Program-made: the position numbers and the translations under genes
Source of the DNA: an uncultured bacterium
GTDB lineage: Bacteria; Acidobacteriota; Thermoanaerobaculia; Thermoanaerobaculales; Sulfomarinibacteraceae
Reading direction: 5' to 3'
DNA: 52,204 bases
Assembly: GCA_965533305.1 (NCBI GenBank)
Contig: CBESWV010000002.1
Span: 1 to 52,204, forward strand
Notes under the pieces: model-generated
Told to the model about the DNA's origin: nothing
Databases searched by the model: none
The model's input: the letters and a program-made list of their open reading frames with translations, nothing else
Part shown: positions 10,709 to 31,828 of the stretch, piece after piece
Numbering within the stretch: position 1 is the first letter of the stretch
Layout of the letters: every line of letters begins with the position of its first letter

Positions 10709-10729
10709 CCGTCCTTTTCCAGCAAAAGG

Positions 10730-15212: not shown

Positions 15213-16964
15213 ATGGGAACACACCACCGGTCCCCCCACAGGTTTGGGCTCTACCTGATCATTGCGATGGCCCTGTCCATGGTTACAGGGAACGGCTCGG
15301 CGGCGGACCATCCGACCCTGGTGAATCCGGAAACGACCACCTGCGTCACCTGCCACGACGAGGTGCTTGCGGTGCGGGTTCCGCATCCGCCGGCGGCCGA
15401 TGACTGCCTGACCTGCCACGTGTTTGAAGCCAGCGAAGGCGAAACGAGCGTGGGATTGATGGAGTCAGGATCTGCGCTGTGTCTGGCCTGCCACGATGGG
15501 CTTGCGGCGGCCGCGACCGGTGAGATCGCGGTCCCGCACGCTCCTGTGGTCGATGACTGTGGGACCTGCCACGGTGCTCATGGCACGGACTTCGATGCCA
15601 TGCTCGTGGTGGAGCCGGCACTCATCTGTGCCGAGTGTCACGATTTAGACGACACCGACGCCGCCCACCCACTACCCGTGCGGCGTGCCGACTGCCGGAC
15701 CTGCCACGAGGCTCACGGTTCGAAGAACGCCCACATGCTGCGTGGATCTTCACGACACGTGCCCTTTGAGGAAGGTTCGTGCGACGCATGTCACCGCACA
15801 CCGCGCGGGACACGTGTGCGTCTCCTCCAAGAGGGCGGGGCTCTCTGTGAGGCGTGCCATGGCGATATCGCGAATGACGGCGATGCGGTGGTCCATACCG
15901 CGATCAAGCAGGGCCGGTGTGTGGAGTGCCACGACCCCCATCTTGCGGATCGCCCCCACCTTCTGAAGGCCGACGGCGGCGAACTCTGCTTTTCGTGCCA
16001 CCCCGACATCGCCGAGCGGGCGAAGGGCCCCGGTGCTCACGCTGCGCTGGAGGATGGTTGCGACGGCTGTCACGACGCACATTCCAGTGATCGGCCCGCG
16101 ATGCTGCTCGACGACGTGGACGAACTCTGTGGCACCTGCCACGATTCGGCGGACCCCGATCTTCGCCGACTGCACTTCGGGGCGGATATGACGACGATCC
16201 GCTGCCTCGGCTGCCACGATCCCCACGGATCATCGAGCATGCCTCTCATCGCCAACGGATCGATCCATCCGCCGTTCCGCGAGGGCTGCAGCAATTGTCA
16301 CGGCGCTACGGCGCAGGAGCTTGAGGGCGGCGGTGGCAATGCTCTGTGCGAGATGTGCCACGACGACGTGGCGGAGACCATCGCGACGGCTGCCGTGCCC
16401 CACCCCGCCATGGAGGCGATGGAGTGCGTGGACTGCCATTCTCCCCATGCATCCCGCCAGCCGAAGCTTCTGCGGGCAGCCGGAGGCGAATTGTGCCTCG
16501 ACTGCCACGAAGACCAGGCGGGAGGCGAGGGTGAGAGCGTTCACCGGGCGATCTCGTGGATCGGATGCCACAGCTGTCACCTACCCCACGGGGGTCCGAG
16601 TGAGAACCTCCTGCGGGCGTCAGGGAACGACCTGTGCAACGGGTGTCACCTGAAGAACCGGGTGAAGGTGGACCGGAACGGCGATGTCAGGCTTGACGGC
16701 GGATTCGTCCTGCGGGGTGAACGGGCTCGGGAACTCGAGATGATCGGCCTCGATCCCTTCCTTCGCAAGAACCACCCGATCCCCGAGCACCCGGTTACCG
16801 GGATGATCGATGGCAAGGGCCGGACGGAAGTGGCGAAGTCGCTTGTGGGTCAAGAGATGACCTGCCGGCTCTGTCATGAACCCCATGCAGCGGCGAGCTC
16901 GAAGTTGTTTGCCTGGAAAGCGACAAACCAGGCTGAGCTGTGCATCGCATGCCACCCCAAATGA
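15213..16964 (+). CDS. Multihaem c-type cytochrome, 21 CxxCH motifs, modular
   Basis: ATG 15213 after SD GGAGA gives the signal peptide MGTHHRSPHRFGLYLIIAMALSMVTGNGSAA. I counted 21 CxxCH motifs. The unit LCxxCH...H.....CxxCH.(A/P)H repeats throughout. Confidence 0.9.
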   Translation: MGTHHRSPHRFGLYLIIAMALSMVTGNGSAADHPTLVNPETTTCVTCHDEVLAVRVPHPPAADDCLTCHVFEASEGETSVGLMESGSALCLACHDGLAAAATGEIAVPHAPVVDDCGTCHGAHGTDFDAMLVVEPALICAECHDLDDTDAAHPLPVRRADCRTCHEAHGSKNAHMLRGSSRHVPFEEGSCDACHRTPRGTRVRLLQEGGALCEACHGDIANDGDAVVHTAIKQGRCVECHDPHLADRPHLLKADGGELCFSCHPDIAERAKGPGAHAALEDGCDGCHDAHSSDRPAMLLDDVDELCGTCHDSADPDLRRLHFGADMTTIRCLGCHDPHGSSSMPLIANGSIHPPFREGCSNCHGATAQELEGGGGNALCEMCHDDVAETIATAAVPHPAMEAMECVDCHSPHASRQPKLLRAAGGELCLDCHEDQAGGEGESVHRAISWIGCHSCHLPHGGPSENLLRASGNDLCNGCHLKNRVKVDRNGDVRLDGGFVLRGERARELEMIGLDPFLRKNHPIPEHPVTGMIDGKGRTEVAKSLVGQEMTCRLCHEPHAAASSKLFAWKATNQAELCIACHPK

Positions 16965-16984
16965 ATGAGAGCGAGAACTGACTG

Positions 16985-18034
16985 ATGGGCCATCGAGCAA
17001 AGTACTTCCTTTTTCCAGTGTTCGCGGCGCTTCTCTGGTCGTGTAGCTCAGGTGGAGCGAGTTCGGGCAAGCGAGCCGCCTCTGAGCCGACGAGGGTCGT
17101 CTATCCTCCGGCTCCGGCCGATCCGGTTGTCGAGTGGGTCGGTGTGATCGGCACCCGGGCCGATGTCGACAACCGGAAACGAACCTTGAGGAAGGTCCTC
17201 GTCGGCGAAGAGGAAATCGAGGCGTCGCTGATGGCTCCGACGGCGGTGGCCATCGGCCCTGACCAGACTCTCTATGTGGTCGATCAGCATCTCCGGGGAG
17301 TGGTGATTATCAACCGGGATGAACAGCGTTTCGAACTCTTCCGGGGGACGGCCCCGGGTTCGCTCTTCCAGCCCGTCGGCGTCGCGGTGGCCGATGACGG
17401 CACTCTGTATGTCAGTGATGCGAGCTCTCAGGCCGTCTATGCCTATGACGCGGAACTCGGGTTCAAGAGGGCCTATGGCGGAGCTGGAATCTTCGATCGG
17501 CCGACCTCCATCGCATTGACGGCGGGTGGTGATCGGATTGCAGTGTGCGACACCGAACGCCATGTGGTAAACGTGATGGAAACCGCAACGGGATTGCCGG
17601 TGATGACCCTGGGAGGCAATGAGAACAGCGCCCGCGACGGCGAGTTTAACTTCCCGGTCGCGGCCGCCTTCGACGCCGAGGGTTACCTCTATGTCTCCGA
17701 CTACCTGAACTTCCGGATTCAGGTCTTCGATCCCGCCGGTGATCTTGATCTAATTTTCGGGAGCGCCGGAGACAGCCCCGGGAACTTGAATCGGCCCCGT
17801 GGATTGGTGGCCGACGCCGCCAACGGCGTGTTGTATGAGGTGGATGGAGCGTTTCAGCTCGTTCAGATGTTTAACCTCGATGGTGAGTTGCTCATGTGGT
17901 TCGGAGAGCCCGGTCAGGGGCCGGGCCAATTCTCTCTTCCTTCAGGTATAGCCATGCGTGACAAGCTTCTGGTCGTCGCGGATACGCTCAACCACCGTAT
18001 TCAACTCTTTCGGTTCCTTGGTTCACCGCAGTGA
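16985..18034 (+). CDS. NHL-repeat beta-propeller lipoprotein (paralog 1)
   Basis: Lipobox FAALLWSC. There are six NHL-like blades (LYVVDQHLRGVVII, LYVSDASSQAVYAYD, IAVCDTERHVVNVM, LYVSDYLNFRIQVFD, LYEVDGAFQLVQMFN, LLVVADTLNHRIQLF). Confidence 0.85.
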   Translation: MGHRAKYFLFPVFAALLWSCSSGGASSGKRAASEPTRVVYPPAPADPVVEWVGVIGTRADVDNRKRTLRKVLVGEEEIEASLMAPTAVAIGPDQTLYVVDQHLRGVVIINRDEQRFELFRGTAPGSLFQPVGVAVADDGTLYVSDASSQAVYAYDAELGFKRAYGGAGIFDRPTSIALTAGGDRIAVCDTERHVVNVMETATGLPVMTLGGNENSARDGEFNFPVAAAFDAEGYLYVSDYLNFRIQVFDPAGDLDLIFGSAGDSPGNLNRPRGLVADAANGVLYEVDGAFQLVQMFNLDGELLMWFGEPGQGPGQFSLPSGIAMRDKLLVVADTLNHRIQLFRFLGSPQ

Positions 18035-18225
18035 TCTGCCCGCCGGAGTTTGTTTGCGCGGTCGGATTTCGATTCGGCGTTCAACAAAGATTTGGAGGCA
18101 TTATCGGCCGCGAGCGGAGATCTCGTTGTTGCGACAGTGTCTTTATTTGAAGACTCCATGACCCGGCCATGACAAAAAACCCTGCCATTTATGTGCGCTT
18201 CGTCACGTGTTCATTAACTCAAGCA

Positions 18226-18254
18226 TTGATTTGGGAATAAATACCGAATATGCT
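18226..18254 (+). promoter_or_regulatory. Candidate sigma-70 promoter TTGATT-N17-TATGCT inside the cytochrome locus
   Basis: It lies in the AT-richer 340-bp gap between 18034 and 18374, about 120 nt upstream of the tetrahaem gene start. Confidence 0.35.
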
Positions 18255-18373
18255 CCAGCCTGTCGATGGGATTCGACTGAACCTGCGGGCCGTTCGCAAT
18301 CAAACGCGGAGGGCTCACGCCGGCAGCGAGGTTCGAATCGAATTTCACCGGACTCGAGAACGGAGGGCAAAAA

Positions 18374-18988
18374 ATGATGAAGAGAGCGCTTGTGATGAGC
18401 TTTTGCGTGGTCCTGGTGGCGGGAATCGCCAGTGCCCAGATTACCGGCAGCGCACACGACTTCAGTAGCGAGACGTGGTCGAACGGCACCATCTGCCTGC
18501 CGTGCCACACGACCCACGATGGTGAGACCTCCTTTGTCGCGCCGCTGTGGAACCACGAAGTGACCGTGGCCAGCTTTCAGATGTACACCAGCGGCACCCT
18601 CGATGGGGAGGTCGATACGCAGCCGGCCGATGTCTCCAAAGCGTGCCTGTCCTGTCATGACGGCACCGTCGCGCTCGAGAACTTTGGTGGGAACACAACC
18701 GGATCGACCTATATCGACGGTGGCGCCCTGGTCGGAACCGATCTGTCGAACGATCACCCGATCAGCGTGACCTACAGCGCAGGAACGGGTGCGGGTCAGG
18801 ATCCCGAGCTCAACCCGACATCGGCGACCTATGCCGATGGGACCATTGCAGACTATCTCTTCGCCAACAAGGTGGAGTGCGCCACCTGCCACGACGTCCA
18901 CAACGGTGGGGCCGTCGGGGGTAACCCGTCCCTGTTGGTGGAGGATCCGGGTGGCAGCCTGATGTGCATTCGTTGCCACGCGAAGTAG
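18374..18988 (+). CDS. Secreted tetrahaem c-type cytochrome (paralog A)
   Basis: SD GGAGGG, then the signal peptide MMKRALVMSFCVVLVAGIASA. The four haem motifs are CLPCH, CLSCH, CATCH and CIRCH. The signature is CxxCHTTH...APLWNH...CLSCHDGT.AL...DHP.S...CxxCHD.H...C..CHAK. Confidence 0.9.
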   Translation: MMKRALVMSFCVVLVAGIASAQITGSAHDFSSETWSNGTICLPCHTTHDGETSFVAPLWNHEVTVASFQMYTSGTLDGEVDTQPADVSKACLSCHDGTVALENFGGNTTGSTYIDGGALVGTDLSNDHPISVTYSAGTGAGQDPELNPTSATYADGTIADYLFANKVECATCHDVHNGGAVGGNPSLLVEDPGGSLMCIRCHAK

Positions 18989-19001
18989 TCTGATCCCGCT
19001 G

Positions 19002-20081
19002 ATGATGCAAGCTCGCGGCACGGGGGGCGATCGTCTCGCCTCCCGTGTCTTTTTTTGGGTGGTTTCTCCTGGTCGGAGGAACACCGCAATCGGCAGACGA
19101 TTGCTGAATGCGGTCGTCATCTTTGCGGCAACGGTACAGCTTGTCGCCCCGATTGCCCAATCGGCCTCGGTGGTCGATTCGGTGGCGATCGTCAATGGCC
19201 GGCAACTCGAGGCGTGGGAACTCGATCGTGAACTGGCGGTGCGGATTTCGGTTGGAAGCTACCATCGGCAGATCTCCCAGGAGAAGAAGACCGAATTCAG
19301 GTGCGAGTCTCTCAAAGCTCTGGTGCTCAAAGAACTCAAGCGGCAGTGGGCGGGGGAGAACCCCGTCGATGTCGATGAAGCAGCAGAAGAGGCGGCCTGG
19401 CAGGAAGTGCGGGCGCGCTTCACCAGCGAGGGGCAATACCGCTCCGCTCTCGAGACCAAGGGAATCGTCGAGGACGCCTTCCGACTGGCCCTCCGTCGAG
19501 ATGCCGTCGCCGAGGCGGTTGACGAGTCGATCGTTTCCAGCGTCACGTCTCCAAGCGAGACTGAGGTTGAGGTCTTCTTCATCCTCAACAGCGATGACTA
19601 TGTGAACCCGGAAGCCCGGCACGTGACTCACATCCTGGTCCACGTTCCACCGTCCGCGACCGTGGAAACCTGGCAGGCGTCCGAGCAACACGCACGTCAG
19701 CTTGCCGAGGAAGCCCGTCGGGAAAGCCTCCCGCTTCTCGTGGTGGGTGAGTCCGATCTCGAGAGCCTCCCTCCTCGGTTTCGCGATGAGGTCGGCGATA
19801 TCGGCTTTGTCCACCGTGGATCGCTGTTGCCCGCCGTCGATGAGGCGGTCTTCTCGGCGGAGGTTGGAGAGGTGATCGAGCCGGTGAAATCGATCTACGG
19901 TTATCATGTGTTGCAAGTGATCAGCACACGTCAATCAAAACCGATCGAACTCGCTGCCGTGCGGGCTGCAGTGGAGGAGCGAATTACGCGGGAGAAGAGA
20001 CAGCATCGGCTCGACGAATTCGAGTTTCAGTTGTTTGACCTTGCGACGATCGAGGTTCTCGAATGCGTCGAGAGATTCTGA
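19002..20081 (+). CDS. Parvulin-type peptidyl-prolyl isomerase (SurA/PpiD/PrsA-like), N-terminal anchor
   Basis: A SurA-like N-terminal chaperone region is followed by the parvulin core ARHVTHILVHV...GDIGFVHRGSLLPAVDEAVFSAEVGEVIEPVKSIYGYHVLQV. Confidence 0.8.
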   Translation: MMQARGTGGDRLASRVFFWVVSPGRRNTAIGRRLLNAVVIFAATVQLVAPIAQSASVVDSVAIVNGRQLEAWELDRELAVRISVGSYHRQISQEKKTEFRCESLKALVLKELKRQWAGENPVDVDEAAEEAAWQEVRARFTSEGQYRSALETKGIVEDAFRLALRRDAVAEAVDESIVSSVTSPSETEVEVFFILNSDDYVNPEARHVTHILVHVPPSATVETWQASEQHARQLAEEARRESLPLLVVGESDLESLPPRFRDEVGDIGFVHRGSLLPAVDEAVFSAEVGEVIEPVKSIYGYHVLQVISTRQSKPIELAAVRAAVEERITREKRQHRLDEFEFQLFDLATIEVLECVERF

Positions 20082-21823
20082 ACCTCGTAGCTCGCCGGCT
20101 CTGCGCTGGGGTCTGTCTGTGGTGCTTTGCCGGGTCCGCCTGGGCCTCGAGCGGGGCGACCTTCACGCTGGGCCTCTCGGCGGAGTACCTGAGCGACTCG
20201 CAGGAATACGCCGGCGTTTCCACCAAGCGATCGAATCTCCAAACCGTCCTCTGGGCGGCCGTTGTCGGTCACCTCGTCGATCCGAGATTCATGACCTTTG
20301 ATGCCAGTGTTGCAAAGACTCTGTCGAATCAGACGATTTCCGGCCAACAGGACAATGAGGTCGACGACACCTACTACGACGGGTCGCTGCGGTTCTTCAA
20401 CAACCGTGCGATTTCGTTCGAAGTCGGTGCGGGCCGTCAGGGAACCGACGTCACCGGTCTCCAACAGGGGGCGATCGTCGATGGGGTGCGCAGCTATCAG
20501 CGGTACGGCCTGCGAGCCCTCGGCGGCCAGTGGTTCCGTCTCAATCTTCGGCACTGGGAGCAGAGCTTCGCCGCGGACCAGCCGGACACGCTGCGTGATG
20601 AGGACTCCGCCTGGAGCGAGCTGTCGACCCAGGCGGCCGTCGGCAAAGTCGATGCCATGCTGCAGCTTCTGTGGAAGGAGAACAATCTCTTCGGGGATGG
20701 TCTTCAGCAGGAGATCGGATCCGGACGGTTCGACCTCGACATCAACCGGACCGGGCGGGTCTACTGGCACACCGACCTCATTGGAAATGTCTACCGTTCC
20801 GCCCAGAATCACGAAGAGTTCTCGCCGTGGACGACGAATTACCTGTTCAGAAACCAGTTGCGCCACCGATACAGTCAACACGGATTCTGGGATCTCAGGG
20901 CGGATATGCGGGTAGTCCGCGTCGACACCGAGCCGGTTGAGGAGGTCATCACCGGAAACGCCTCGGCCAACCTCGTGGCACCGCTGAGCCCGTCGACCTT
21001 TCTCGAGGCCGAACTCGGCTATCTCAGCAACGAGTACGGTGACGGCCTGCGGCTGACCCAGCCCCGGGCGGGCCTCGGGCTGAGGTGGGGTCAGCAGTTC
21101 GGCCGCTGGTGGGTGTCGTTCTACCCCCGGGTGACCTATCTCAGAGCCGACCCGGAGGAACTCGAGCAGGAGTCGGCCTTCGGCTCGCTGATCTTCGGGT
21201 CCGTTCGCTACCAACTTCCCCGTTCGAGTGTGACCTTGGAGGGCGAATACTTCGACAACCAACTCTCGATCCCGGACTACAGCGTCGGCGAACCCCCCAT
21301 CGGGAGCGCGTTTCTCGCAGGTCTCGACCGGCGGCGCTACCGCGGACGGGTGATCTTCGAGTATCGGCCCACCCGCCGAGCCGCGTTCTCGCTCGACTTT
21401 GACTATCGCAACCGGGTGCGGGTGGATCGTGGGTTCGAGATCGAGGAAGATGTAGCCCGCGCCCAGCTCAACATGGCGCTTGGACGGGTGACCATCGGAG
21501 CCTCCGCCGACCGGTTCGAGATGGTCGGAAGCGAGATCCCGACCTTGACCGATGTGTGGCAGGCGAACATCAGCTGGGGTCCGACGTACTGGTTGCTCTT
21601 CGACGGGTTCGTACGCTCCGAGGAGCGCAGGATCTTCGATCATATTGGCACGTACGAGTTCGCAGAGCTCGGAGTGCGATTCAACTACGCCAAGCTTTCA
21701 TTCTATGCTCGGGTGCGAGAGCAGCGAACCGAGGAGGCGGGACTCGAACAGCGCCGATTTCGACGGATTTGGGTCGGTGTGAGGCGTTTGTTCAACATCA
21801 GAGCCGGAGACAACCGAAGATGA
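20063..21823 (+). CDS. Putative outer-membrane beta-barrel protein (porin-like component of the cytochrome locus)
   Basis: Signal peptide MRREILNLVARRLCAGVCLWCFAGSAWA. The 586-aa sequence is rich in alternating hydrophobic/polar stretches and aromatic girdle residues (VSFYPRVTYLRA, LIFGSVRYQL, VTLEGEYFDN, AFSLDFDYRNR). It overlaps both neighbours (19 nt upstream, ATGA downstream). Confidence 0.6.
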   Translation: MRREILNLVARRLCAGVCLWCFAGSAWASSGATFTLGLSAEYLSDSQEYAGVSTKRSNLQTVLWAAVVGHLVDPRFMTFDASVAKTLSNQTISGQQDNEVDDTYYDGSLRFFNNRAISFEVGAGRQGTDVTGLQQGAIVDGVRSYQRYGLRALGGQWFRLNLRHWEQSFAADQPDTLRDEDSAWSELSTQAAVGKVDAMLQLLWKENNLFGDGLQQEIGSGRFDLDINRTGRVYWHTDLIGNVYRSAQNHEEFSPWTTNYLFRNQLRHRYSQHGFWDLRADMRVVRVDTEPVEEVITGNASANLVAPLSPSTFLEAELGYLSNEYGDGLRLTQPRAGLGLRWGQQFGRWWVSFYPRVTYLRADPEELEQESAFGSLIFGSVRYQLPRSSVTLEGEYFDNQLSIPDYSVGEPPIGSAFLAGLDRRRYRGRVIFEYRPTRRAAFSLDFDYRNRVRVDRGFEIEEDVARAQLNMALGRVTIGASADRFEMVGSEIPTLTDVWQANISWGPTYWLLFDGFVRSEERRIFDHIGTYEFAELGVRFNYAKLSFYARVREQRTEEAGLEQRRFRRIWVGVRRLFNIRAGDNRR

Positions 21824-22827
21824 GGACGCAACGATTCGCACTCGTAATTCTCCTAGCAGCGGGTTGCCTGCCGTCGCGGGCGATCTGTGCCGAGGGCCCG
21901 GTCTGGCCGCCCCCCGGAGCTGAGGCTCCGGCCGAGGTTGCCTGGCAGGCCATCGTCGAGGAGTTCCGCCCCAAGGGCCTGGGACGATTCTTCCGCGCGG
22001 TGGCAGGCGCAGAGCGACATCAGCAGGCGTGGACTCTGCCGCGGCCCGTCGCCGTGGCTCTCGCCAAAGACCGGGTCTTCGTGGTGGACACGGCCATGAG
22101 CTGGGTGATCGGCGGCAAGACCGATGGAAGCTCCGCGGTCAAGCTGAAGCTGCCTGACGGTGTGCAACCGGTCGCTATCGCCTCGACCCCGGATGGGAAT
22201 CGGATCCTGGTCGCGGATCGGGAACTCGGAGTCGTCTTCGCTTTCGACCTCAAAGGCTCGCTGCTCGGCGAAGTCGTGGGTCGAGATTTGGTGCAGCGTT
22301 GTGGTGGGATCGCCGCGTGTGCGAATGGCGATGTGTTGATCACCGATGCTGAGGCCGGTCAGGTCGTTCGTGTCTCCACCGATGGACTCGAGGTGGCCAG
22401 GTCGGGCGGGCGTGGAACCGGCGATGGAGAGTTCAACACTCCGACCGCTGTTGCCGAAGCACCGGACGGCACGGTTTGGGTCCTCGATCCCTTCAATTTC
22501 CGGGTCCAGCAGCTCGACGCCGAACTTCAATACCTGTCTCAGTTCGGCCAGCACGGGGATGGGTCCGGGCATTTTGCCCTTGCCAAGGGGCTGGCGATTG
22601 ATCCCGACGGCCATATCTATGTGTCCGACGCACGCTTTGATGCAGTTCAGGTCTTTGACGGGGAGGGGCAGCTTCTCCTGATCATCGGTGGTCGTGGTTT
22701 CTCAGCGGGCGAATTCTGGACACCCGGAGGTCTCGCCATCGATCGACGCGGTCATCTGGCCGTGGCGGATACCGGGAATCGACGGATCCAACTCATGCGC
22801 TACCAGCGAAGGGAAAACCAGAAATGA
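21820..22827 (+). CDS. NHL-repeat beta-propeller lipoprotein (paralog 2)
   Basis: ATG 21820 overlaps the upstream stop (ATGA). The start is MRTQRFALVILLAAGC, with a lipobox. NHL blades include GEFNTPTAVAEAPDGTVWVLDPFNFRVQQLD, IYVSDARFDAVQVFD and LAVADTGNRRIQLMRY. Confidence 0.85.
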   Translation: MRTQRFALVILLAAGCLPSRAICAEGPVWPPPGAEAPAEVAWQAIVEEFRPKGLGRFFRAVAGAERHQQAWTLPRPVAVALAKDRVFVVDTAMSWVIGGKTDGSSAVKLKLPDGVQPVAIASTPDGNRILVADRELGVVFAFDLKGSLLGEVVGRDLVQRCGGIAACANGDVLITDAEAGQVVRVSTDGLEVARSGGRGTGDGEFNTPTAVAEAPDGTVWVLDPFNFRVQQLDAELQYLSQFGQHGDGSGHFALAKGLAIDPDGHIYVSDARFDAVQVFDGEGQLLLIIGGRGFSAGEFWTPGGLAIDRRGHLAVADTGNRRIQLMRYQRRENQK

Positions 22828-23477
22828 GACGCGCGGCAATCACCCTGACGATGGTATTGGGTTTGGCTGTTCTGGCCTGGTCCCAGGAAAGCATACGCGA
22901 CACCCCTCACAATCTTTCCGTGACCGGTCCGGGCACCGTCAGGGCGGTGTCCGAAACCAGGGTGTGTGTCTTCTGTCACACGACCCACAACGCCGCCTTC
23001 CATGCGCCGTTGTGGAATCGGGAGAACCCGGGAGGCAGCTACCAGATGTACTGGAGCGAGACCATGGACGCCTATGGATCCTCGGGGGAGGCGCCGCAGC
23101 CCAATGGTTCGTCGAAACTCTGCCTTTCCTGCCACGACGGAACCATTGCACTCGGATCGACGGTTTCGTCGGGTCGTATCGAGATGCGTGGAGGAATCAC
23201 GACCATGCCGTCGACCTCGGAATCAAATCTCGGCCGAGACCTCAGCGGTGATCACCCGGTCTCCTTCACGGTGACGGACCACCTGGTCACGACCAACAAT
23301 TCCAAGGGCGATGTCCCTCTGAGATCGTTGTCGGAGATGCGGAACCACCCCCTCGCGAAGCTCGACAAGGAGAATCGCATCCAGTGCACGACCTGCCACG
23401 ATCCCCATCGCGACCCTTATGGAAATTTCCTTCTCACCGCAAAACCGGGGGAGCTATGCATCGCGTGTCATTCCTGA
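22824..23477 (+). CDS. Secreted tetrahaem c-type cytochrome (paralog B)
   Basis: ATGA overlap with the upstream gene. Signal peptide MRRAAITLTMVLGLAVLAWS. Haem motifs are CVFCH, CLSCH, CTTCH and CIACH. It shares the signature of 18374-18988 (CHTTH, APLWNRE, CLSCHDGTIAL, DHPVS). Confidence 0.9.
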   Translation: MRRAAITLTMVLGLAVLAWSQESIRDTPHNLSVTGPGTVRAVSETRVCVFCHTTHNAAFHAPLWNRENPGGSYQMYWSETMDAYGSSGEAPQPNGSSKLCLSCHDGTIALGSTVSSGRIEMRGGITTMPSTSESNLGRDLSGDHPVSFTVTDHLVTTNNSKGDVPLRSLSEMRNHPLAKLDKENRIQCTTCHDPHRDPYGNFLLTAKPGELCIACHS

Positions 23478-24586
23478 GGACTGCTGCGGCGGCGATTGTC
23501 CTGATCGCCCCGGTGGCCTCGGCCGTTGATCTCGGCAAGCACTTCGAGCCGGGCAAGCTCGCCGAAGACTGTACACCGTGCCATCAGGGTCACGGGGCCG
23601 CCCGAACACCCATGTTGACGACCGAGAGCGACCTCATGTGCATTGAGTGCCACCAGACGGGCGCAGCTGAGCCCGGCCGGCGTGAAGCACTTGGAATGGA
23701 CTCCGGCGCCGATCCGGCGGACATCCGTGTGGAAATGGTCAAACCGGTGATCCACCGCGGGGCGCGTTGTATAGACTGCCACAGTGTTCATGGCATCGGC
23801 CGGCTTCAGGGGGCGCCTGGGGCCAACCTCAATCTCGGACGGCAGAAGCCTTCGCCGAAACGGGGCTTCGCCAGCGAGGCGAATCTCTGCCTTTCGTGTC
23901 ACGGAACCCGGTCGACAATGGTCTCGGATCCTCATGACATCGGTCTGCTCTTTGATTCGAGGAATCCCTCGTTCCACCCGGTCCTCGCCATCGGTGTCGG
24001 CGAGGTCCCAAGCCTCTTGCCTCCATTGACACCTGATTCCCTCATCAACTGTTCTGATTGCCACACAAACGATGATGTCCGTGGTGCGCGTGGACCGCAC
24101 GGGAGCCGAGTGCCGGGGCTGCTCGGCGCCGACTACTCATTGCAGGATGGGCAGCCGGAATCGGAGGCCGGATACGCTCTGTGCTATCAGTGCCACGATC
24201 GGAAAATCGTCCTCGATTCCGATCCCTTCCCATACCACCGACTGCACGTTGTGGACCAACGAACCGCGTGCGTCCTGTGCCACGATGCGCACGGTGCGAC
24301 CGCTGGGCGGGCCCTCATTCGCTTCAACGAACCCACGGCGATCACCGGCGTTCTGGCCTCGAGTTCTGGGCGGCTCGAATACAGTTCTGAGGCGGCGGGG
24401 ATGGGGGGCTGCTATCTCACCTGCCACGGCGTTGATCACGACCCCCTCGGTTATGGGCCCATGTTCACAACCAAAGGCCGCCCCAGGTTTGTCGATCCCA
24501 ATCGTGATGGGGCCCTGGGTCGGCATCCGGCCGGCACCCAGGCGGCGCCGCGAGCGGGCACCAGATCCGACGGCAGGAAACAGTGA
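23456..24586 (+). CDS. Octahaem-type c cytochrome (7 CxxCH + 1 CxxxCH)
   Basis: ATG 23456 follows GGGGGA. Signal peptide MHRVSFLRTAAAAIVLIAPVASA. The motifs are CTPCH, CIECH, CIDCH, CLSCH, CSDCH, CYQCH and CVLCH, plus CYLTCH at 24410-24427. Confidence 0.9.
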   Translation: MHRVSFLRTAAAAIVLIAPVASAVDLGKHFEPGKLAEDCTPCHQGHGAARTPMLTTESDLMCIECHQTGAAEPGRREALGMDSGADPADIRVEMVKPVIHRGARCIDCHSVHGIGRLQGAPGANLNLGRQKPSPKRGFASEANLCLSCHGTRSTMVSDPHDIGLLFDSRNPSFHPVLAIGVGEVPSLLPPLTPDSLINCSDCHTNDDVRGARGPHGSRVPGLLGADYSLQDGQPESEAGYALCYQCHDRKIVLDSDPFPYHRLHVVDQRTACVLCHDAHGATAGRALIRFNEPTAITGVLASSSGRLEYSSEAAGMGGCYLTCHGVDHDPLGYGPMFTTKGRPRFVDPNRDGALGRHPAGTQAAPRAGTRSDGRKQ

Positions 24587-24819
24587 GGCTTCAAAACACC
24601 ACCCTCGCTGATACGGTCCTGTCCGCGAGTTCGAGTGGGTCCGTGATCCAAGGCACTGAAAGTGGATGGCCTCTTTCGCGACAATCAATAATCGGAACGG
24701 TTCCCGTTAAAGAGTGTGATTCGGTTTCGAGAAAGGAAAACGGAGTGAGACGCCCACCAACGAAGGATGGCGACCCGAGGGGCGCGAGCGCACGCTGGAA
24801 TGGCTCCGCGCGGTCAGGG

Positions 24820-25833
24820 ATGACCGCCCGAGTGACAGTGCTCATTGCTGTCGGCGTGATCATCCTCGGACTGCCGGGAACGACGTCCGCACAGCTGTGT
24901 AACTGGGACGGCACACCGATGCTGCCGCCACCTGAAGTCGATGCTCTGGGCACACAGCTGGAGATCCTGCGGGCCCCGGCCCGTCTGGCGGTCGACTCCG
25001 CCGACAACGTCTACGTCACCGATCCGACCCGGGGAACGATCGTGGTCATGGATGTCTACGGAGACGTCATCGAAATGCGCAGTGGATTGGGGGCTCCCCT
25101 GACCGTCGCGGTGGACGCCTTTGACAACATCTACGTGGGCGATGACGCGACAGGACGGATCGACATCTTCGATTCTCTGTGGCAGCACGCTGGCGTCCTC
25201 GGTAGCGGTGCGGGGGAGTTCATGGCCGCAACCGATATCGCCATCGATCCGGATCCAGGTTTTGGTTTTGTCTTCGTCTCCGATGGTGAGGCGAACCTGA
25301 TCAAGGTCTACGGTCCCGATGGCCAGATGGTCCGATCATTCGGAGGCTCTGGAACTGGTCCGGGAGAGTTCGATTTTCCGTCAGCCGTTTGGGTGAGTCC
25401 GTACGGTGAGGTCTATGTCGGAGACCAGAACAATGATCGTGTCCAGGTTTTCGATCGTGACGGTGCTTTTCTTCGCTGCTTCGGGGCTCAGGGCGGGGGA
25501 AACCGAAACTTCGGCCGGATCCAGGGTCTGACAGGGGACCTCGATGGCAGAATCTATGTCGCCGATGCGTTCCAGAGCCATGTCAAGGTCCTCGACGGCG
25601 CCGGTGCGGATCTCGGGACCATCGGCAGCCTGGGAGATCGTTCCGGTCAGTTCCGGACCCCCTTCGGCGTGGTGATAGATAGCACCAACCGGCTGTTCGT
25701 GTCATCAGTGAACAGCGGTCGGCTCGAGGTCTTTGGGTTGGACGACTACGGAGTCGTTCCTCCCTCCGGCCTGATCTTCAACGACGGATTTGAATCTGGA
25801 GATGTTCATGCCTGGTCTGAAGCTGTTCCGTAG
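24820..25833 (+). CDS. NHL-repeat beta-propeller protein (paralog 3), secreted
   Basis: MTARVTVLIAVGVIILGLPGTTSA is a signal peptide. Six NHL blades are present (VYVTDPTRGTIVVMD, IYVGDDATGRIDIFD, VFVSDGEANLIKVYG, VYVGDQNNDRVQVFD, IYVADAFQSHVKVLD, LFVSSVNSGRLEVFG). An alternative GTG start is at 24745. Confidence 0.8.
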   Translation: MTARVTVLIAVGVIILGLPGTTSAQLCNWDGTPMLPPPEVDALGTQLEILRAPARLAVDSADNVYVTDPTRGTIVVMDVYGDVIEMRSGLGAPLTVAVDAFDNIYVGDDATGRIDIFDSLWQHAGVLGSGAGEFMAATDIAIDPDPGFGFVFVSDGEANLIKVYGPDGQMVRSFGGSGTGPGEFDFPSAVWVSPYGEVYVGDQNNDRVQVFDRDGAFLRCFGAQGGGNRNFGRIQGLTGDLDGRIYVADAFQSHVKVLDGAGADLGTIGSLGDRSGQFRTPFGVVIDSTNRLFVSSVNSGRLEVFGLDDYGVVPPSGLIFNDGFESGDVHAWSEAVP

Positions 25834-27958
25834 ACCGCCGAAGGGGATTCTCGTGCGGGGAATTCTGCTGTCGATGGCTTTGCTGCTTGTCGTCCCAGGC
25901 GCCGATGCGCTGGATCCGCCGCACGACGCCTCGTGGGCCATAGACTGCTCGAGTTGTCACACGACTCACAGTGCGTCCGGCGGTGGACTCACGACCGTGG
26001 GAGGCAACGGCAATCTGTGTCTGAGCTGTCACGTCTTCGGCGGTCTCGCCGCGGGGCTTCCTTTCGTCGATGCCGATCAGGCGTTGCCGGGCCCCGGTCT
26101 GCCTTCGGGTACCAGCCCGTCGGGAAATTCTCACCGATGGGACGCCGGCGCCGCCGGCCACGTCAAGCCCGATGGCGGCAACACGTCGGTGGGCGAGGTC
26201 GCTCCGGGCGGCCTATTCGTTGGGAAATTTCCAAAGACCTACACGGTGACAATGACCTCTTCCGGGGATGTCGGTGCGGCCGTCTTCTCGTGGAACGACA
26301 CCCTGGCGGGCGGAGGCGCCGGATTGACCACCGGCGCCGATGTGCTCCTCGACGAGGGTGTCATGGTGACGTTCACCAACGCCGAGGCTTCGCCGTCTTT
26401 CGTGGCTGGGGACGTGTGGCGGATCTATGTTCGGGCCGATTTGAGGCATCCGCAAACGGCGGCCATGTCGAGCCGTCTCGAGGACGGCCGAGCCATGTGT
26501 TCGACCTGCCACGACCAGCACAAGCAGGCGAGAGAGCCCTTCGATGCCACGGCGCCGCCATACGGTGGAGCTGGGACCGGTGAAGGACGCCACTTCATGC
26601 GGATCGACGACGACGAGGGCGCCAGCTGCAACGACTGCCACGGATTCAGGGATGTGACGGTCTCCATTGATGGATCGCACCCGGTTGGCCGAAGTGTTCC
26701 CGGCTCGGGAGGCTACCAGCAGCCTACGACGCTGCCGCTGGATCCCATGAACTGGATGGTGTGCATGACCTGTCACCAGGTCCATGACGCACCCACGAGC
26801 GATGGGTCGCTGCTGCGCAGAGTGGATCGAACGGGTCTGTGCACCGAGTGTCACACTCTCGCCGACACCGCGACCCCCGCAGCCCATCTCGACCCGGCCT
26901 CCACCGGGGCACTCTGGCCCGGCGGACAATATGGATCGACCTTCCCGGCCATCACGGACGTATCCCAGACCGCGAGCTGTTCCGGTTGCCATCAGGCGCA
27001 CGGCTGGCCCGACACCAACGATGTCGATCGGGATTACCCCCGGCTCCAGATCGATCTCGAAGAAGACCTGTGTTTCACATGCCACGATGGGAGCCCGGCG
27101 AATGCCGACGTGCGGACCGACTTCCTCAAGAACTCGGCACACCCGTTGGATCTGGCATCCGAGGTTCACCAGCCGGGCGAGCCCGCCGTCGTGACCACCC
27201 GTCACGTCGAGTGCGAAGACTGCCATGGTCCGCATGACGCAGTGGCGAGAGTCAACCTTCCCGGCGCCACCACCTCGCCTCGACCGGCTTCGGGGCCGCT
27301 CGAAGGTGTTTCCGGCGTCAACCTGGCCGGCAACGAGGTGAGTCCCGCATCCTATGAGTACCAGCTCTGTCTTCGTTGTCACGCCGACAGCCCCAATCTG
27401 CCGTCGCCGTCCACGCCGCGCCAATTCCCCGAATCCAACCTCCGACTCGAATTCAACGGCTCGCTGGCGTCCTATCACCCGGTCGCGATGGAAGGAACGA
27501 ACTCCAGCGTGCCGAGTTTGACCACCGGGTGGGACGAAACCAGCCTGATGAGCTGCACCACATGCCACAACAACGACGACGGCCCGGTGACCGGCGGTTC
27601 GGGCGCCAACGGCCCGCACGGCTCGGACTGGCCGCATCTGCTCGAGCGTCGCTATGAGACCACGGACCCCCAACAGTTCAACCAGCAAAAATACGCCATG
27701 TGCTTCAAGTGCCACTCATGGCAGAACCTGGCTGGCGGCAACAGCTTCGACGACCACTCCAAACACGTCTCCGGCGAGCAGACGCCATGCAACGTCTGCC
27801 ACGACCCGCACGCTTCGGCTAACCCCAAACTCATCAACTTCGACACCTCGGTGGTGACGCCCTTCAACGGCACCCTCGAGTTCGTGTCATCGGGGACCCA
27901 CCAGGGTGAGTGCACGTTGACCTGTCACGGCGAGGAACACGACCCCTATACCTATTGA
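25808..27958 (+). CDS. Large multihaem c-type cytochrome (13 CxxCH + 1 CxxxCH)
   Basis: GGAG lies 6 nt before ATG 25808. The signal peptide ends ..LLLVVPGADA. There are 13 CxxCH motifs plus CTLTCH at 27911-27928. The N-terminus resembles the tetrahaem paralogs (CSSCHTTH, CLSCH). The C-terminal 136 aa are homologous to the end of the 23456-24586 protein. Confidence 0.9.
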   Translation: MPGLKLFRRPPKGILVRGILLSMALLLVVPGADALDPPHDASWAIDCSSCHTTHSASGGGLTTVGGNGNLCLSCHVFGGLAAGLPFVDADQALPGPGLPSGTSPSGNSHRWDAGAAGHVKPDGGNTSVGEVAPGGLFVGKFPKTYTVTMTSSGDVGAAVFSWNDTLAGGGAGLTTGADVLLDEGVMVTFTNAEASPSFVAGDVWRIYVRADLRHPQTAAMSSRLEDGRAMCSTCHDQHKQAREPFDATAPPYGGAGTGEGRHFMRIDDDEGASCNDCHGFRDVTVSIDGSHPVGRSVPGSGGYQQPTTLPLDPMNWMVCMTCHQVHDAPTSDGSLLRRVDRTGLCTECHTLADTATPAAHLDPASTGALWPGGQYGSTFPAITDVSQTASCSGCHQAHGWPDTNDVDRDYPRLQIDLEEDLCFTCHDGSPANADVRTDFLKNSAHPLDLASEVHQPGEPAVVTTRHVECEDCHGPHDAVARVNLPGATTSPRPASGPLEGVSGVNLAGNEVSPASYEYQLCLRCHADSPNLPSPSTPRQFPESNLRLEFNGSLASYHPVAMEGTNSSVPSLTTGWDETSLMSCTTCHNNDDGPVTGGSGANGPHGSDWPHLLERRYETTDPQQFNQQKYAMCFKCHSWQNLAGGNSFDDHSKHVSGEQTPCNVCHDPHASANPKLINFDTSVVTPFNGTLEFVSSGTHQGECTLTCHGEEHDPYTY

Positions 27959-28215: not shown

Positions 28216-28995
28216 TTACTCTTCAGCAACGATCTCAGCATCCTTGAGCATGACCGCATAGGTATAGCCGGCGCCAAAATCCTGATTGGTGACCAGGGTG
28301 CCGGTGGCGGTCACAATGTCCCCGACAGAGGCGGTGCCGAGCGTGGTGACGGTGAGATCGTGCGATCCTTCAGCCGCCGAACCCGTGCCATCCTGGAGAT
28401 GGATCCAGTTCGTGCCCAGAATTCCGCCGTTGTACTTGACCACTCGTCCGCGGACGGTGATCGAGGTGTCAGCGAGTTTGGCGGTTTCGGACCAGATCTG
28501 CCCCACCGTCACACCGCCATCGGCAGGCTCGACCGGTTCCGTCGCCTGGCTGGACGCATCATGGGCGGAGACGGTTTCTCCGGCCACGGCTGGGTGACCC
28601 GCGGGCATGGAGGGCGAGGCTGTTTCGCCTTTGCGCATGATCTGCGAGGTGAAATAGACCACTGGGAAGGTACGGTCCAGGCTCTCACTGTGAAAATCCT
28701 GCATCGGCATTTCCAGGGGAACAACGACAACCTCGCCCACGGCCACGTCGAATCGTGTGGCCGCGGCCCAGATTTCTTCGCCTCCCGTATCGACGCGAAC
28801 ATAGGTGTAGTTCCCGGCGTTCATGGTCTCCACGACCGTGCCGGTCGCGGTGGCGCCGGCGGGGGCCATGCTCTGGGCCGCCTCGATATCGGTCTGGTTC
28901 TGGGAATTCTCGTCCTCGGGCTGTTCGGCGGTACACGCACCGACGACGCCGAGCGAGGCGGCCATCAATAGCGACATGGTGATTCGATAGGTCAT
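28216..28995 (-). CDS. Lipoprotein with OB-fold-like (tRNA_anti-type) repeats
   Basis: Lipobox SLGVVGAC. One module is GTVVETMNAGNYTYVRVDTGGEEIWAA. The second is ITVRGRVVKYNGGILGTNWIHLQDGTG...VGDIVTATGTLVTNQDFGAGYTYAVMLKDAEI. The fold assignment is from memory of similar annotated proteins. Confidence 0.65.
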   Translation of the reverse strand: MTYRITMSLLMAASLGVVGACTAEQPEDENSQNQTDIEAAQSMAPAGATATGTVVETMNAGNYTYVRVDTGGEEIWAAATRFDVAVGEVVVVPLEMPMQDFHSESLDRTFPVVYFTSQIMRKGETASPSMPAGHPAVAGETVSAHDASSQATEPVEPADGGVTVGQIWSETAKLADTSITVRGRVVKYNGGILGTNWIHLQDGTGSAAEGSHDLTVTTLGTASVGDIVTATGTLVTNQDFGAGYTYAVMLKDAEIVAEE

Positions 28996-29091: not shown

Positions 29092-30417
29092 CTATGACGG
29101 CAGATCCACTTTCGCCCTGCCGACACCGTAGTATTCGAACCCGTTGTCCGCCATGCGTTCGGGGCTGCAGACGTTGCGCAGATCCACGATGGCGTTGCCT
29201 GTGAGCGCCGACTTGATCCGGTCCATATCCAGGGAGCGGAACTGGTTCCACTCGGTGACGATGACCAGGGCGTCGGCGCCGGAGGCGGCGTCGTAGGAGT
29301 CTTCGCAATACTCCACCGATGCCGGGAGATAGGTCTTGGCGTTGTCCATGGCCACCGGATCGAAGGCGCGCACCTTGGCGCCCTCGTTGACCAGCGTCTC
29401 GGCGATGGGGATCGAGACGGACTCCCGCATATCGTCGGTCTCGGGTTTGAAAGAGAGACCGAGGAGGGCCACCGTTTTGCCGGCGAGGTTGTTACCGAGC
29501 GCAGCGCGGACCTTCTCCACCGCCCGGGCCTTCATCCGCTCGTTCACCGTCACGACGGTCTCGACGATGTCGAAGGGCCTCCCGGCTTCGCGGCCGATCT
29601 CGGCGAGGGCCAGGGTATCCTTCGGGAAGCACGACCCACCATAACCCGGTCCGGGGTGGAGGAACTTGGATCCGATCCTCTTGTCCAGCCCCATCCCCTT
29701 GGCGACGTGGTGGACATCGGCGCCGATGAGTTCACAGATTTCGGCAACTTCGTTGATAAAGGTGATCTTGGTGGCGAGGAAGGCGTTAGACGCGTACTTG
29801 ATGAGCTCCGACGACTCGACATTGGTGATGACGAATGGGGTGTCGCGGAGAAAAAGCGGCGAGTAGATGTCCTTCATGATGGCGATGGCCTGGTGGTCCC
29901 GGGCGCCGATCACCACCCGGTCGGGGCGCATGAAGTCTTCGATGGCCGAACCCTCACGAAGGAATTCGGGATTGGATACGACTGAAAAGGGTTGATTGCT
30001 CGTGGTGCGCCCTGAAATGGTCTTTTCGATGAGCTGACCGGTCCCGGTGGGCACCGTGGACTTGGTGATGACGACCTTGTAGCCGTCGAGGTTGTCGGCG
30101 ATGGACTCGGCGACCTGAATGACATACGACAGATCGGCCGAACCGTCCTTTTTGGGCGGGGTGCCGACGGCAATGAAGACCGCCAGTGCGCTTCTGATGG
30201 CCGGGTCGAGATCGGTGGTGAAGTGCAGACGTCCGGCCTTGGCGTTCTTCTCCACCAGTGCGTCGAGGCCGGGTTCGTAGATTGGCATCTCACCGCGCAG
30301 CAGCATGTCGATCTTCCGTTCGTCCTTGTCGACACACGTCACGTTGATGCCGAAATCGGCCAAGCACGCTCCGGTGACCAGTCCCACATAGCCCGTACCT
30401 ACCACGCAGATGTGCAT
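29092..30417 (-). CDS. ugd: UDP-glucose 6-dehydrogenase
   Basis: MHICVVGTGYVGLVTGACLA Rossmann start, the catalytic GGSCFPKD motif, and full-length similarity to UDP-glucose/GDP-mannose dehydrogenases. Confidence 0.95.
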   Translation of the reverse strand: MHICVVGTGYVGLVTGACLADFGINVTCVDKDERKIDMLLRGEMPIYEPGLDALVEKNAKAGRLHFTTDLDPAIRSALAVFIAVGTPPKKDGSADLSYVIQVAESIADNLDGYKVVITKSTVPTGTGQLIEKTISGRTTSNQPFSVVSNPEFLREGSAIEDFMRPDRVVIGARDHQAIAIMKDIYSPLFLRDTPFVITNVESSELIKYASNAFLATKITFINEVAEICELIGADVHHVAKGMGLDKRIGSKFLHPGPGYGGSCFPKDTLALAEIGREAGRPFDIVETVVTVNERMKARAVEKVRAALGNNLAGKTVALLGLSFKPETDDMRESVSIPIAETLVNEGAKVRAFDPVAMDNAKTYLPASVEYCEDSYDAASGADALVIVTEWNQFRSLDMDRIKSALTGNAIVDLRNVCSPERMADNGFEYYGVGRAKVDLPS

Positions 30418-30711: not shown

Positions 30712-31821
30712 ATGCCCATTCCGCTGCTCGATCTCAAACGCCAGTACGAACCCCTGCGCGACGAAATGGAACGAACCCTCAACGAGGTCGCTGCGAGCCA
30801 GTACTTCATCCTCGGACCCGAGGTTGAGAAATTCGAAAAGTCCGCCGCCACGTGGCTCGGAGTCGAGCACGCCATCGGCGTGGCGTCGGGAACCGACGCG
30901 CTTCTGATCGCTCTCATGGCCCTCGATGTCGGACCCGGTGACGAGGTCATCCTGCCGACCTTCACCTTCTTCGCCACCGCCGGGGTGGTTTCCCGTCTGG
31001 GTGCGACACCGGTCTTTGTCGACATCGACCCAGTTGACTTCAACATGGATCCCGCCCTGGTGCGCGAGAAGGTCTCGGATCGCACCAAGGCGATCATCCC
31101 GGTTCACCTCTTCGGGCAGTCGGCCGATCTCGAAGCGATCCGCGAAGCCGCCGGCGATGTTCCGATCCTCGAGGATTGCGCCCAGGCATGGGGCGCCGAC
31201 TTCGGCGGCCGTTATGTCGGTGGCCACGGCATCATGGGTGCCTTCAGCTTCTTTCCGTCAAAGAACCTCGGTGGATTCGGTGATGGCGGGATGGTGACGA
31301 CCAACGATGCCGAGATGGCCGCCAAACTGAGGGAACTCCGCGTCCACGGCCAGTCCGGGCCGTATCTCCACCCGATCGTCGGTGGGAACTTCCGGCTCGA
31401 CGCCATCCAGGCGGCTGTGCTCCGGGTCAAGATGCCCCATGTCCAGGGTTGGGTCCAGGGGCGCCGCGCCAACTCCATGCGGTATGTCGATGCCTTCACC
31501 CAGAGGGATCTGGACAAGGTCCTCGGTCTGCCGCTCGCTCTGTCGGGCCGAGGCCACACCTATAATCAGTTCGTGATCCGTGCGCCGCGTCGTGACGAGC
31601 TGAAGCAGCACCTCCTGGATCGCGAGATCGGGTGTGCGGTCTACTACCCCCTGTGTCTCCACCTCCAGCCGTGTTTCAGCGATCTCGGTTACGCGGAAGG
31701 CGACTGTCCAGTGGCGGAGCAGGCGAGTGCCGAGGTTTTGGCGCTGCCGGTCTTCGGCGAGCTCACGGAAGGGGAGATCGAAGAAGTCGTGGGCGCGATT
31801 GCGGAGTTCTACACGGTTTGA
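30712..31821 (+). CDS. DegT/DnrJ/EryC1/StrS-family PLP-dependent sugar aminotransferase
   Basis: MPIPLLDLKRQYEPLRDEM start and the PLP-lysine region FSFFPSKNLGGFGDGGMV. ATG 30712 follows SD AAGGAG. The ORF-track start at 30616 lies inside the leader element. Confidence 0.9.
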   Translation: MPIPLLDLKRQYEPLRDEMERTLNEVAASQYFILGPEVEKFEKSAATWLGVEHAIGVASGTDALLIALMALDVGPGDEVILPTFTFFATAGVVSRLGATPVFVDIDPVDFNMDPALVREKVSDRTKAIIPVHLFGQSADLEAIREAAGDVPILEDCAQAWGADFGGRYVGGHGIMGAFSFFPSKNLGGFGDGGMVTTNDAEMAAKLRELRVHGQSGPYLHPIVGGNFRLDAIQAAVLRVKMPHVQGWVQGRRANSMRYVDAFTQRDLDKVLGLPLALSGRGHTYNQFVIRAPRRDELKQHLLDREIGCAVYYPLCLHLQPCFSDLGYAEGDCPVAEQASAEVLALPVFGELTEGEIEEVVGAIAEFYTV

Positions 31822-31828
31822 TCGATTC

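Follow-up and report, generated by a model that had tools for sequence, protein, structure and literature searches.

OmcE is the tetrahaem subunit of an extracellular filament of Geobacter sulfurreducens (PDB 7TFS) in which the adjacent subunit supplies a histidine ligand to one haem, as also happens in OmcS (PMC9473688). In the Desulfuromonadia, the minimal omcE cluster as defined by Petersen et al. comprises two multihaem cytochromes, two beta-propeller lipoproteins, OmcE and a large barrel, and NHL propellers are also part of the outer-membrane cytochrome clusters of Desulfovibrio ferrophilus. The uetABCDEFGHIJ cluster of Ca. Tenderia electrophaga encodes a tetrahaem cytochrome (UetA), a peptidyl-prolyl isomerase (PPIase; UetB), a barrel with 28 predicted strands (UetC), the NHL proteins UetH and UetI and an undecahaem cytochrome (UetJ), together with the trihaem c7 proteins UetD, UetE and UetG and the cupredoxin UetF; it also occurs in some Gallionella, and Uet-like sets are found in iron oxidisers. 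For Ca. Sulfomarinibacter, Supplementary Table 5 of Flieder et al., 2021 (PMC8528874) lists a multihaem cytochrome (MHC), an NHL protein, an extracellular cytochrome c, a PPIase-like protein, a hypothetical beta-barrel (twice) and further MHCs; the authors named this cluster "extracellular cytochromes & associated genes", noted its synteny with a cluster of the Fe/Mn-reducer Thermoanaerobaculum aquaticum, and proposed that it is a conduit for metal-oxide reduction. Here we analyse a ten-gene locus at positions 15213-27958 of a 52,204-nt stretch of DNA (hereafter the window) from an uncultured member of the Sulfomarinibacteraceae (contig CBESWV010000002.1). The locus is an OmcE/Uet-type cluster, of a kind already described, including for the Ca. 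Sulfomarinibacter lineage, and not a new machine. We put at about 60% the probability that it encodes an outer-membrane electron conduit of this type, one that would probably carry a polymeric tetrahaem filament.

The evidence that places the locus begins with its two tetrahaem cytochromes, T4a (third of the ten genes, g3; 18374..18988, + strand; 204 aa, standalone, with a Sec signal peptide) and T4b (g7; 22824..23477, +; 217 aa). By sequence, both are full-length OmcE homologues that retain the complete set of eight haem-ligating histidines, a relationship that the original prediction had missed. T4b matches 7TFS at E=2e-30 over residues 6-216 of its 217, and T4a matches both 7TFS (E=1e-15) and 9YUQ (E=5e-19) along its full length. 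T4b also matches 9YUQ, a 16-chain entry of a 218-aa cytochrome that we take, by an assignment of our own, to be the Desulfuromonas soudanensis OmcE bundle of the 2025 preprint of Petersen et al. The four CxxCH motifs and H29, H55, H144 and H195 are invariant across T4a, T4b, G. sulfurreducens OmcE and the 9YUQ protein, and all eight histidines are 97-100% conserved in 149 tetrahaem modules, in both of the classes described below.

Species-representative genomes were scanned with an OmcE-like alignment, which gave at least 568 matching stretches, and the best 80 loci (L001-L080) were compared with the window. They come from about 12 phyla in all: Planctomycetota, Bacteroidota/Ignavibacteria, Verrucomicrobiota, Acidobacteriota, Nitrospirota, Pseudomonadota, Desulfobacterota, Myxococcota, Calditrichota, Eisenbacteria, Binatia and Fidelibacterota. 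By BLASTP of the ten window proteins against the open reading frames (ORFs) of these loci, a tetrahaem homologue is present in 80 of the 80, a relative of the octahaem protein MHC8 in 79, an NHL protein in 77, an MtrA-like cytochrome in 62 and a PPIase in four. A fused 12-haem protein occurs in 75 of the loci and a barrel in 67. A standalone tetrahaem is found in 58 of the loci, and in a neighbour-joining tree these form, with T4a, one of two clades of tetrahaem modules; in the other, T4b groups with 75 modules that are the N-terminal domains of fused cytochromes. The prevailing architecture is a T4a-like tetrahaem, an NHL protein, a 5-haem MtrA-like cytochrome, a protein of ~700 aa, a second NHL protein and an 11-12-haem cytochrome. 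On these comparisons, the conserved unit is a recurrent six-part module: besides a standalone OmcE-like protein it has a pair of NHL proteins, an MtrA-like cytochrome, a barrel that belongs to one family and an 11-12-haem cytochrome with a second OmcE-like module at its N-terminus. It had been suggested that cytochrome-NHL pairs recur three times in the locus, a pattern that gives way to the six-part module once other loci are considered; MHC21 with NHL1, and NHL3 with MHC14, are, by the same comparisons, lineage-specific variations. Among close relatives the gene set itself is kept, as the idea of a functional unit had demanded: all ten genes occur in the same order in a Ca. Sulfomarinibacteraceae metagenome-assembled genome (Acidobacteriota, Thermoanaerobaculia; L084), the closest named relative with a barrel 69% identical to that of the window, and in a closer relative (L085), MHC14 being conserved in both. 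The 69% match very probably places the window in that lineage. In the more distant L083, where the barrel is 53% identical, the order T4a-PPIase-barrel-NHL-T4b-MHC8 is retained and the contig ends just upstream of T4a.

The surroundings of T4a are also suggestive. Upstream lies an intergenic region of 339 nt (18035..18373, +) that contains a CRP-like palindrome, TGTGCGCTTCGTCACG, at 18192-18207 (+), ~170 nt 5' of T4a. The window holds a single instance of the pattern, where 0 would be expected, its block is kept in L084 and L085, and it may be a regulator binding site for the T4a gene. A weak TTGATT-N17-TATGCT site that follows, read by eye and not flagged by the promoter scan, is a tentative promoter candidate. 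Behind T4a is an intrinsic-terminator-like hairpin (19017..19056, +; z = -2.2), with a 14-bp stem at 19017-19049 that includes 10 G-C pairs and, after it, a T7 run. Hairpins of this kind stand behind the standalone tetrahaem gene, or behind omcE itself, in all 11 loci inspected, which span five or more phyla and the lineages Acidobacteriota, Geobacter, Nitrospirota, Ignavibacteria, Desulfobacterales and Gammaproteobacteria; they were seen in the Geobacter omcE cluster (L081, ~10720-10750), in L069 (~5410-5445) and in L017, L046, L063, L029, L058 and L083-L085. Under a fixed criterion, which is a simple pattern, 27 of 64 T4a genes have a hairpin behind them, compared with 46 of the 483 other genes in the clusters (Fisher p=5e-10). 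A scan of the sequence for sigma-70 and terminator patterns overall gave no enrichment over shuffles. We propose that the hairpin acts as a partial terminator that would yield T4a in excess, and the spacer and hairpin together make up the layout to be expected where the gene for an over-produced structural subunit precedes those for its assembly. Neither riboswitches nor other RNA families came up when the locus was searched against Rfam, both at the gathering threshold and at E<=1, and a cyclic-dinucleotide riboswitch of the sort that precedes Geobacter electron-transfer genes is therefore not detectable.

The second OmcE-like protein, T4b, is best understood together with the gene that follows it, g8 (MHC8; 23456..24586, +), a 376-aa octahaem cytochrome with seven CxxCH motifs and one CxxxCH. 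The 11-12-haem cytochrome of other loci combines an OmcE-like domain and an 8-haem domain in one protein, a fused form present in 75 loci. In the Ignavibacterium album example (L017:9923-11626), residues 27-209 are 46% identical to T4b and residues 247-567 are 33% identical to MHC8. Sequence comparison thus identifies g7 and g8 as a split version of a single 11-12-haem cytochrome. The split is not an assembly error, since g8 has its own signal peptide and the same two-gene arrangement recurs in other loci (L002, L058, L069 and L083-L085). The last gene of the locus, g10 (MHC14; 25808..27958, +; 716 aa), encodes a cytochrome with 14 haem motifs (13 CxxCH and one CxxxCH) that is, as judged from alignment, a paralogue of the same 12-haem type: its residues 279-716 share 36% identity with residues 132-567 of the I. 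album protein, and its residues 391-716 share 32% with MHC8. MHC14 also contains a haem-free insert of ~130 residues (~100-230) between its second and third haem motifs that is not found in the 12-haem paralogues.

At the opposite end of the locus, g1 (MHC21; 15213..16964, +) encodes a 583-aa cytochrome that has 21 haem motifs and begins with a signal or anchor. Against the DmsE-family decahaem model TIGR03508 it reaches 198.2 bits (cut-off 192.2); it contains ten Pfam Paired_CXXCH_1 stretches, and matches 6R2Q chain A at E=4e-13. We take this chain to be the MtrA of the Mtr complex. In the PDB copy that was searched the 333-aa chain is labelled "Cystathionine beta-synthase", which looks like a labelling oddity, as it behaves as a decahaem MtrA. 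On this sequence evidence MHC21 is MtrA-like, and the locus is therefore read as a porin-cytochrome conduit with an OmcE-type filament. A 40%-identical 21-haem homologue occupies the position of MHC21 in L058. No decahaem lipoprotein of the MtrC/OmcA type was found among the cytochromes of the locus, their scores against TIGR03507 being 19-31 bits (cut-off 209), and no cytochrome carries a lipobox.

Multihaem cytochromes also serve in periplasmic enzyme systems, and a nitrite, sulfite, hydroxylamine or tetrathionate reductase was considered for the locus. Its only encouragement came from weak sub-threshold NCBIfam scores, for example 24.8 bits for NrfH (cut-off 134) and 17.5 bits for a pentahaem NrfB-type model (cut-off 184). 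None of the cytochromes matches NrfA, HAO, Otr or MccA, or any other soluble enzyme family, at threshold in Pfam or NCBIfam, and none has a CxxCK or other catalytic-haem motif; as the locus furthermore encodes an outer-membrane barrel and OmcE homologues, this explanation is scarcely credible and was rejected.

That barrel is the product of g5 (20063..21823, +; 586 aa, with a Sec signal peptide), for which a barrel-like character had been anticipated from sequence texture. A non-membrane fold would have been at odds with this expectation; instead, the AlphaFold2 model, built with 21 homologues, consists of a signal helix and 28 beta strands (mean pLDDT 77.6), and Foldseek searches of the PDB with it returned only large outer-membrane barrels. 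MtrB (6R2Q_B) came first, followed among others by the PapC and FimD ushers, LptD and TonB-dependent transporters. The resemblance to MtrB (TM-score 0.43, 10% identity, 28 versus 26 strands) comes without a sequence-family match, and a modest TM-score of ~0.4 is to be expected because the strand numbers differ. The g5 product thus models as an outer-membrane-type barrel. The presence of PapC and FimD among the best fold matches raises the possibility that the barrel, the propellers and the PPIase form an usher-like machine for secreting or assembling the tetrahaem protein, with electrons reaching the filament by some other route. A chaperone-like PPIase gene does lie between the subunit and barrel genes, the order of subunit gene, terminator and assembly genes resembles that of pilus operons, and a porin-mounted assembly model has been proposed for both OmcS and OmcE. 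However, TM-scores to the ushers are low (0.21-0.31), the PPIase is absent from 76 of the 80 loci and so is not essential to the module, and the MtrA-like cytochromes and 8-haem/OmcE-like fusions that the clusters carry would be hard to explain without a trans-barrel haem chain. We therefore regard an usher-like role as doubtful.

The g5 protein has no match in Pfam or NCBIfam, and HMMER finds only 26 relatives of it among 1.84 billion representatives, which is why it has no family name. The ~700-aa proteins of the other clusters form one BLAST-connected family of 62 ORFs (which we call famB). When a widened g5 profile of 25 sequences was compared by hhalign with 56 famB members, the two aligned end to end over 527 columns with a probability of 99.1% (E=8e-19); the narrow g5 profile gave 85.7% (E=5e-6). 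Direct HMMER searches of the ORFs of the 80 loci with the narrow profile returned only matches at E>0.05, although the top weak matches all lay at the same cluster position, and the link is resolved only by profile-profile comparison. By this measure, there is a single barrel family that extends across many phyla and includes g5. The L069 barrel, compared as a single sequence, could be tied neither to the g5 barrels nor to famB. In L034, L062 and L070 the barrel family is represented by a pair of ORFs that adjoin or overlap, which suggests frameshifts, assembly errors or pseudogenes.

The remaining components are propellers and the PPIase. NHL1 (g2; 16985..18034, +; 349 aa), NHL2 (g6; 21820..22827, +; 335 aa) and NHL3 (g9; 24820..25833, +; with a signal peptide) share 29-41% mutual identity, and each matches the Geobacter propeller L081:8338-9423 at 31-32% identity (31% for NHL1 and 32% for NHL2; E=1e-45, 5e-38 and 7e-32, respectively). 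Pfam recognises NHL in NHL1 (E=7e-23) and NHL2, and NHL plus DUF5128 in NHL3; the AlphaFold2 model of NHL2 has 24 strands, corresponding to six blades, with residues 72-329 confidently placed, and its sequence matches in the PDB are six-bladed NHL domains. The description of the three as paralogous six-bladed NHL proteins therefore stands, while the assertion that two of them have lipoboxes holds clearly for NHL2 (LAAGC), in which a disordered tether of ~55 residues follows the lipobox, and is borderline for NHL1 (LWSC), which is possibly a lipoprotein. The PPIase, g4 (ORF 19002..20081, +; N-terminal signal or anchor), is a parvulin, as had been predicted, and a SurA-like one, with Pfam matches to the PPIC-type Rotamase (E=3e-12), Rotamase_2 and SurA_N_3, and it is found at the same position in L083-L085, L058 and L069.

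How confidently a filament can be read into this assembly depends on what one makes of the tetrahaem proteins. Both solved members of the OmcE family (7TFS and 9YUQ) form filaments, which supports a filament here. The alternative, essentially that of the original prediction and of Flieder et al., is a plain conduit of the MtrCAB or Pcc type in which the tetrahaem proteins are monomeric extracellular or periplasmic carriers at the barrel. It draws on the MtrA-like cytochrome and on a barrel with MtrB as its best fold match; the histidine count fits a monomer equally well; and the authors of the Uet work put the conduit first, with polymers only as a possibility. Yet the experimentally solved family members are both filaments, the spacer and terminator around T4a make up a layout typical of an over-produced structural subunit, and the locus has no MtrC/OmcA-type lipoprotein cytochrome, and we consider a conduit lacking a filament possible, if on the unlikely side.

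Several observations nevertheless weigh against an OmcE-type conduit with a filament. The eight histidines mark membership of the family and not polymerisation, as far as sequence can tell, because a monomeric bis-histidine tetrahaem protein needs the same eight. The solved OmcEs fall only weakly within the T4b/fused clade and are nearly equidistant from the T4a and T4b classes, so that either paralogue might be the one that polymerises. The terminator criterion is failed by 58% of T4a genes. The barrel of the Geobacter omcE cluster (L081) shows no link to g5 or famB by phmmer or hhalign, and a profile of 30 Geobacter-type barrels reaches a probability of 4% against the g5 profile and of 47%, out of register, against famB. 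No inner-membrane quinol oxidoreductase is encoded in the 52-kb window. The physiological role of cytochrome filaments in general is disputed (PMC11077965).

With these points in mind, it is possible to sketch how a conduit carrying an OmcE-type filament might work. Homologies, folds, gene layout and transcription signals come from the data; how the haems are ordered along the chain, whether subunits polymerise, what the propellers and PPIase do and which way electrons flow are what we infer. Electrons would pass from an inner-membrane quinol oxidoreductase, encoded elsewhere, to MHC21, a 21-haem MtrA-like rod that would bridge the periplasm and enter the 28-strand barrel, and T4b and MHC8 would extend the haem chain through or onto the barrel to the surface. 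We propose that T4b is the base or adaptor of the filament and T4a its major subunit: the OmcE-like T4b would provide a template on which T4a, supplied in excess from its own promoter and a leaky terminator, could polymerise by ligation of histidines to the haems of neighbouring subunits. At the outer membrane, the lipid-tethered propellers might hold, assemble or scaffold the complex, while the SurA-like PPIase could chaperone the barrel or the coil-rich cytochrome subunits, or both, across the periplasm, and NHL3 with MHC14 may constitute an accessory extracellular branch. It is tempting to generalise this to a two-paralogue filament system, in which T4a polymerises and the second OmcE-like module both nucleates the filament and wires it by way of the 8-haem domain, the 28-strand barrel and the MtrA-like rod, but this wider proposal is a tentative one to which we attach rather low confidence.

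On account of the lineage, the direction of flow would most likely be outward, to metal oxides or partner cells. Multihaem conduits can run either way, however, and the order tetrahaem-PPIase-barrel is that of uetABC, so the locus might instead draw electrons in, whether from Fe(II) minerals, from cathodes or from partner cells. Such uptake has been proposed for Uet in the electroautotrophic Tenderiales and some Gallionella, and the Uet-like sets of iron oxidisers are in keeping with this. But the closest named relatives are anaerobic Thermoanaerobaculia, the relative in culture that has a syntenic cluster is a reducer of Fe and Mn oxides, and the cupredoxin and trihaem c7 proteins of Uet are absent from the locus, all of which make inward flow rather improbable.

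As for the organisation of the locus, the ten ORFs are co-directional on the + strand and the five cytochromes carry 21 (all CxxCH), 4, 4, 8 and 14 haem motifs, 51 in total, in agreement with the counts previously made by eye. No other ORF of at least 60 aa, in any frame of the window, contains a CxxCH motif, and the clustering of cytochromes is therefore not due to chance. The overlaps that had been reported at the gene junctions are all present: ATGA at 21820 and 22824, and 19, 22 and 26 nt at 20063, 23456 and 25808, respectively. Two start sites need adjustment. The NHL3 ORF is open from 24583, but its start is most likely 24820, where the signal peptide begins and with which the gene calls in relatives agree; the first ~79 codons of the ORF (24583-24819) look non-coding, which leaves a gap of 233 nt after g8, and an internal promoter for NHL3 and MHC14 is possible there. 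Likewise, the PPIase probably starts at 19059 or 19101, beyond 19056, as the strong hairpin occupies 19017-19049 within the ORF that opens at 19002.

Elsewhere in the window, a 259-aa predicted lipoprotein (28216-28995, -; lipobox VGAC) with no Pfam family is convergent with the end of the locus. A UDP-glucose dehydrogenase (29092-30417, -), a GT1-family glycosyltransferase (GT; 31634-33004, +) and a PMT_2 (GT39-like) mannosyltransferase (44196-45644, +) are also encoded downstream. Glycosylation islands with GT2, GT4 and GT39 enzymes trail many Geobacter omcE clusters, and the glycosyl genes here may or may not be linked to the locus. Two large predicted envelope or secreted proteins, a 744-aa DUF5916/CBM9 protein (38817-41051, -) and a 923-aa phytase-like protein with an endonuclease/exonuclease/phosphatase domain (49055-51826, +), are unrelated to it. 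The long ORFs at 7360-8688 (-) and 10097-10858 (-), with high GC3, translations of odd composition and no family matches, are probably shadow ORFs and not genes, and a tRNA-Gln (anticodon TTG; 8922-8996, +) is the sole RNA gene detected in the window.

This acidobacterial example bears on how cytochrome nanowires are exported, how they are anchored and how they join the electron-transport chain of the cell. If the two-paralogue system is correct, it would show how nanowires are anchored and fed with electrons in about a dozen phyla, and the division between g7 and g8 would offer a case in which "nucleator" and "trans-barrel wire" are naturally separate. The comparative leads are the second OmcE-like module fused to an 8-haem domain, the single barrel family that crosses phyla, and the terminator behind the subunit gene. 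The locus also ties to related machinery three literatures, those on Uet in electroautotrophs, on OmcE in Geobacter and on the "extracellular cytochrome" cluster of marine Acidobacteriota, and in the biogeochemistry of sediments it lends support to electron transfer by Thermoanaerobaculia to metal oxides or between species.

With MtrCAB of Shewanella (6R2Q) the locus shares an MtrA-like cytochrome, a barrel for which MtrB is the best fold match, and the logic of a haem wire insulated by a barrel; it differs in having 28 rather than 26 strands, no sequence homology between the barrels and no MtrC/OmcA-type lipoprotein, and in having propellers, a PPIase and OmcE-like proteins in addition. The Geobacter omcE cluster is closer, with a homologous tetrahaem protein, NHL/DUF5128 propellers, multihaem cytochromes and a large barrel outside any Pfam family, and all of the component classes in the definition of Petersen et al. 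are found here in one co-directional block. In contrast to the window, however, the Geobacter cluster has a 752-aa barrel of no detectable homology, lacks a PPIase and a second OmcE-like module, and is directly followed by glycosyltransferases, which in the window lie 1-16 kb away. Every component of the L001-L080 clusters (T4a-NHL-MHC5-barrel-NHL-12-haem) has its homologue in the window, where a 21-haem cytochrome replaces the 5-haem one, a PPIase has been added, the 12-haem protein is split, the first three genes are permuted and NHL3 and MHC14 are appended.

Going by its published description, Uet resembles the locus in the order tetrahaem-PPIase-barrel (g3-g4-g5, with g4 corresponding by position to UetB), in the 28 strands of the barrel, and in its NHL proteins and ~11-haem cytochrome. 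The locus departs from Uet in lacking trihaem ORFs and a cupredoxin, in its additional 21-haem and 14-haem cytochromes and in the split of its equivalent of the 12-haem protein. The view that NHL propellers and a dedicated PPIase lie outside described modules does not survive these comparisons, as Uet has both and the omcE and D. ferrophilus clusters have propellers, and nor does the claim of an undescribed parts list, given that Uet, the omcE clusters and the 2021 Ca. Sulfomarinibacter list describe the same parts. What remains of the original prediction is the kind of machine, an envelope-spanning one for electron transfer, upheld by the barrel model and by conservation, and what falls away is its novelty. 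In Flieder et al., the homology to OmcE and the split 12-haem protein went unrecognised and the NHL proteins were called "beta-barrel", but the order of genes in their Ca. Sulfomarinibacter cluster, a likeness judged from the gene list and the lineage, is that of g1-g8.

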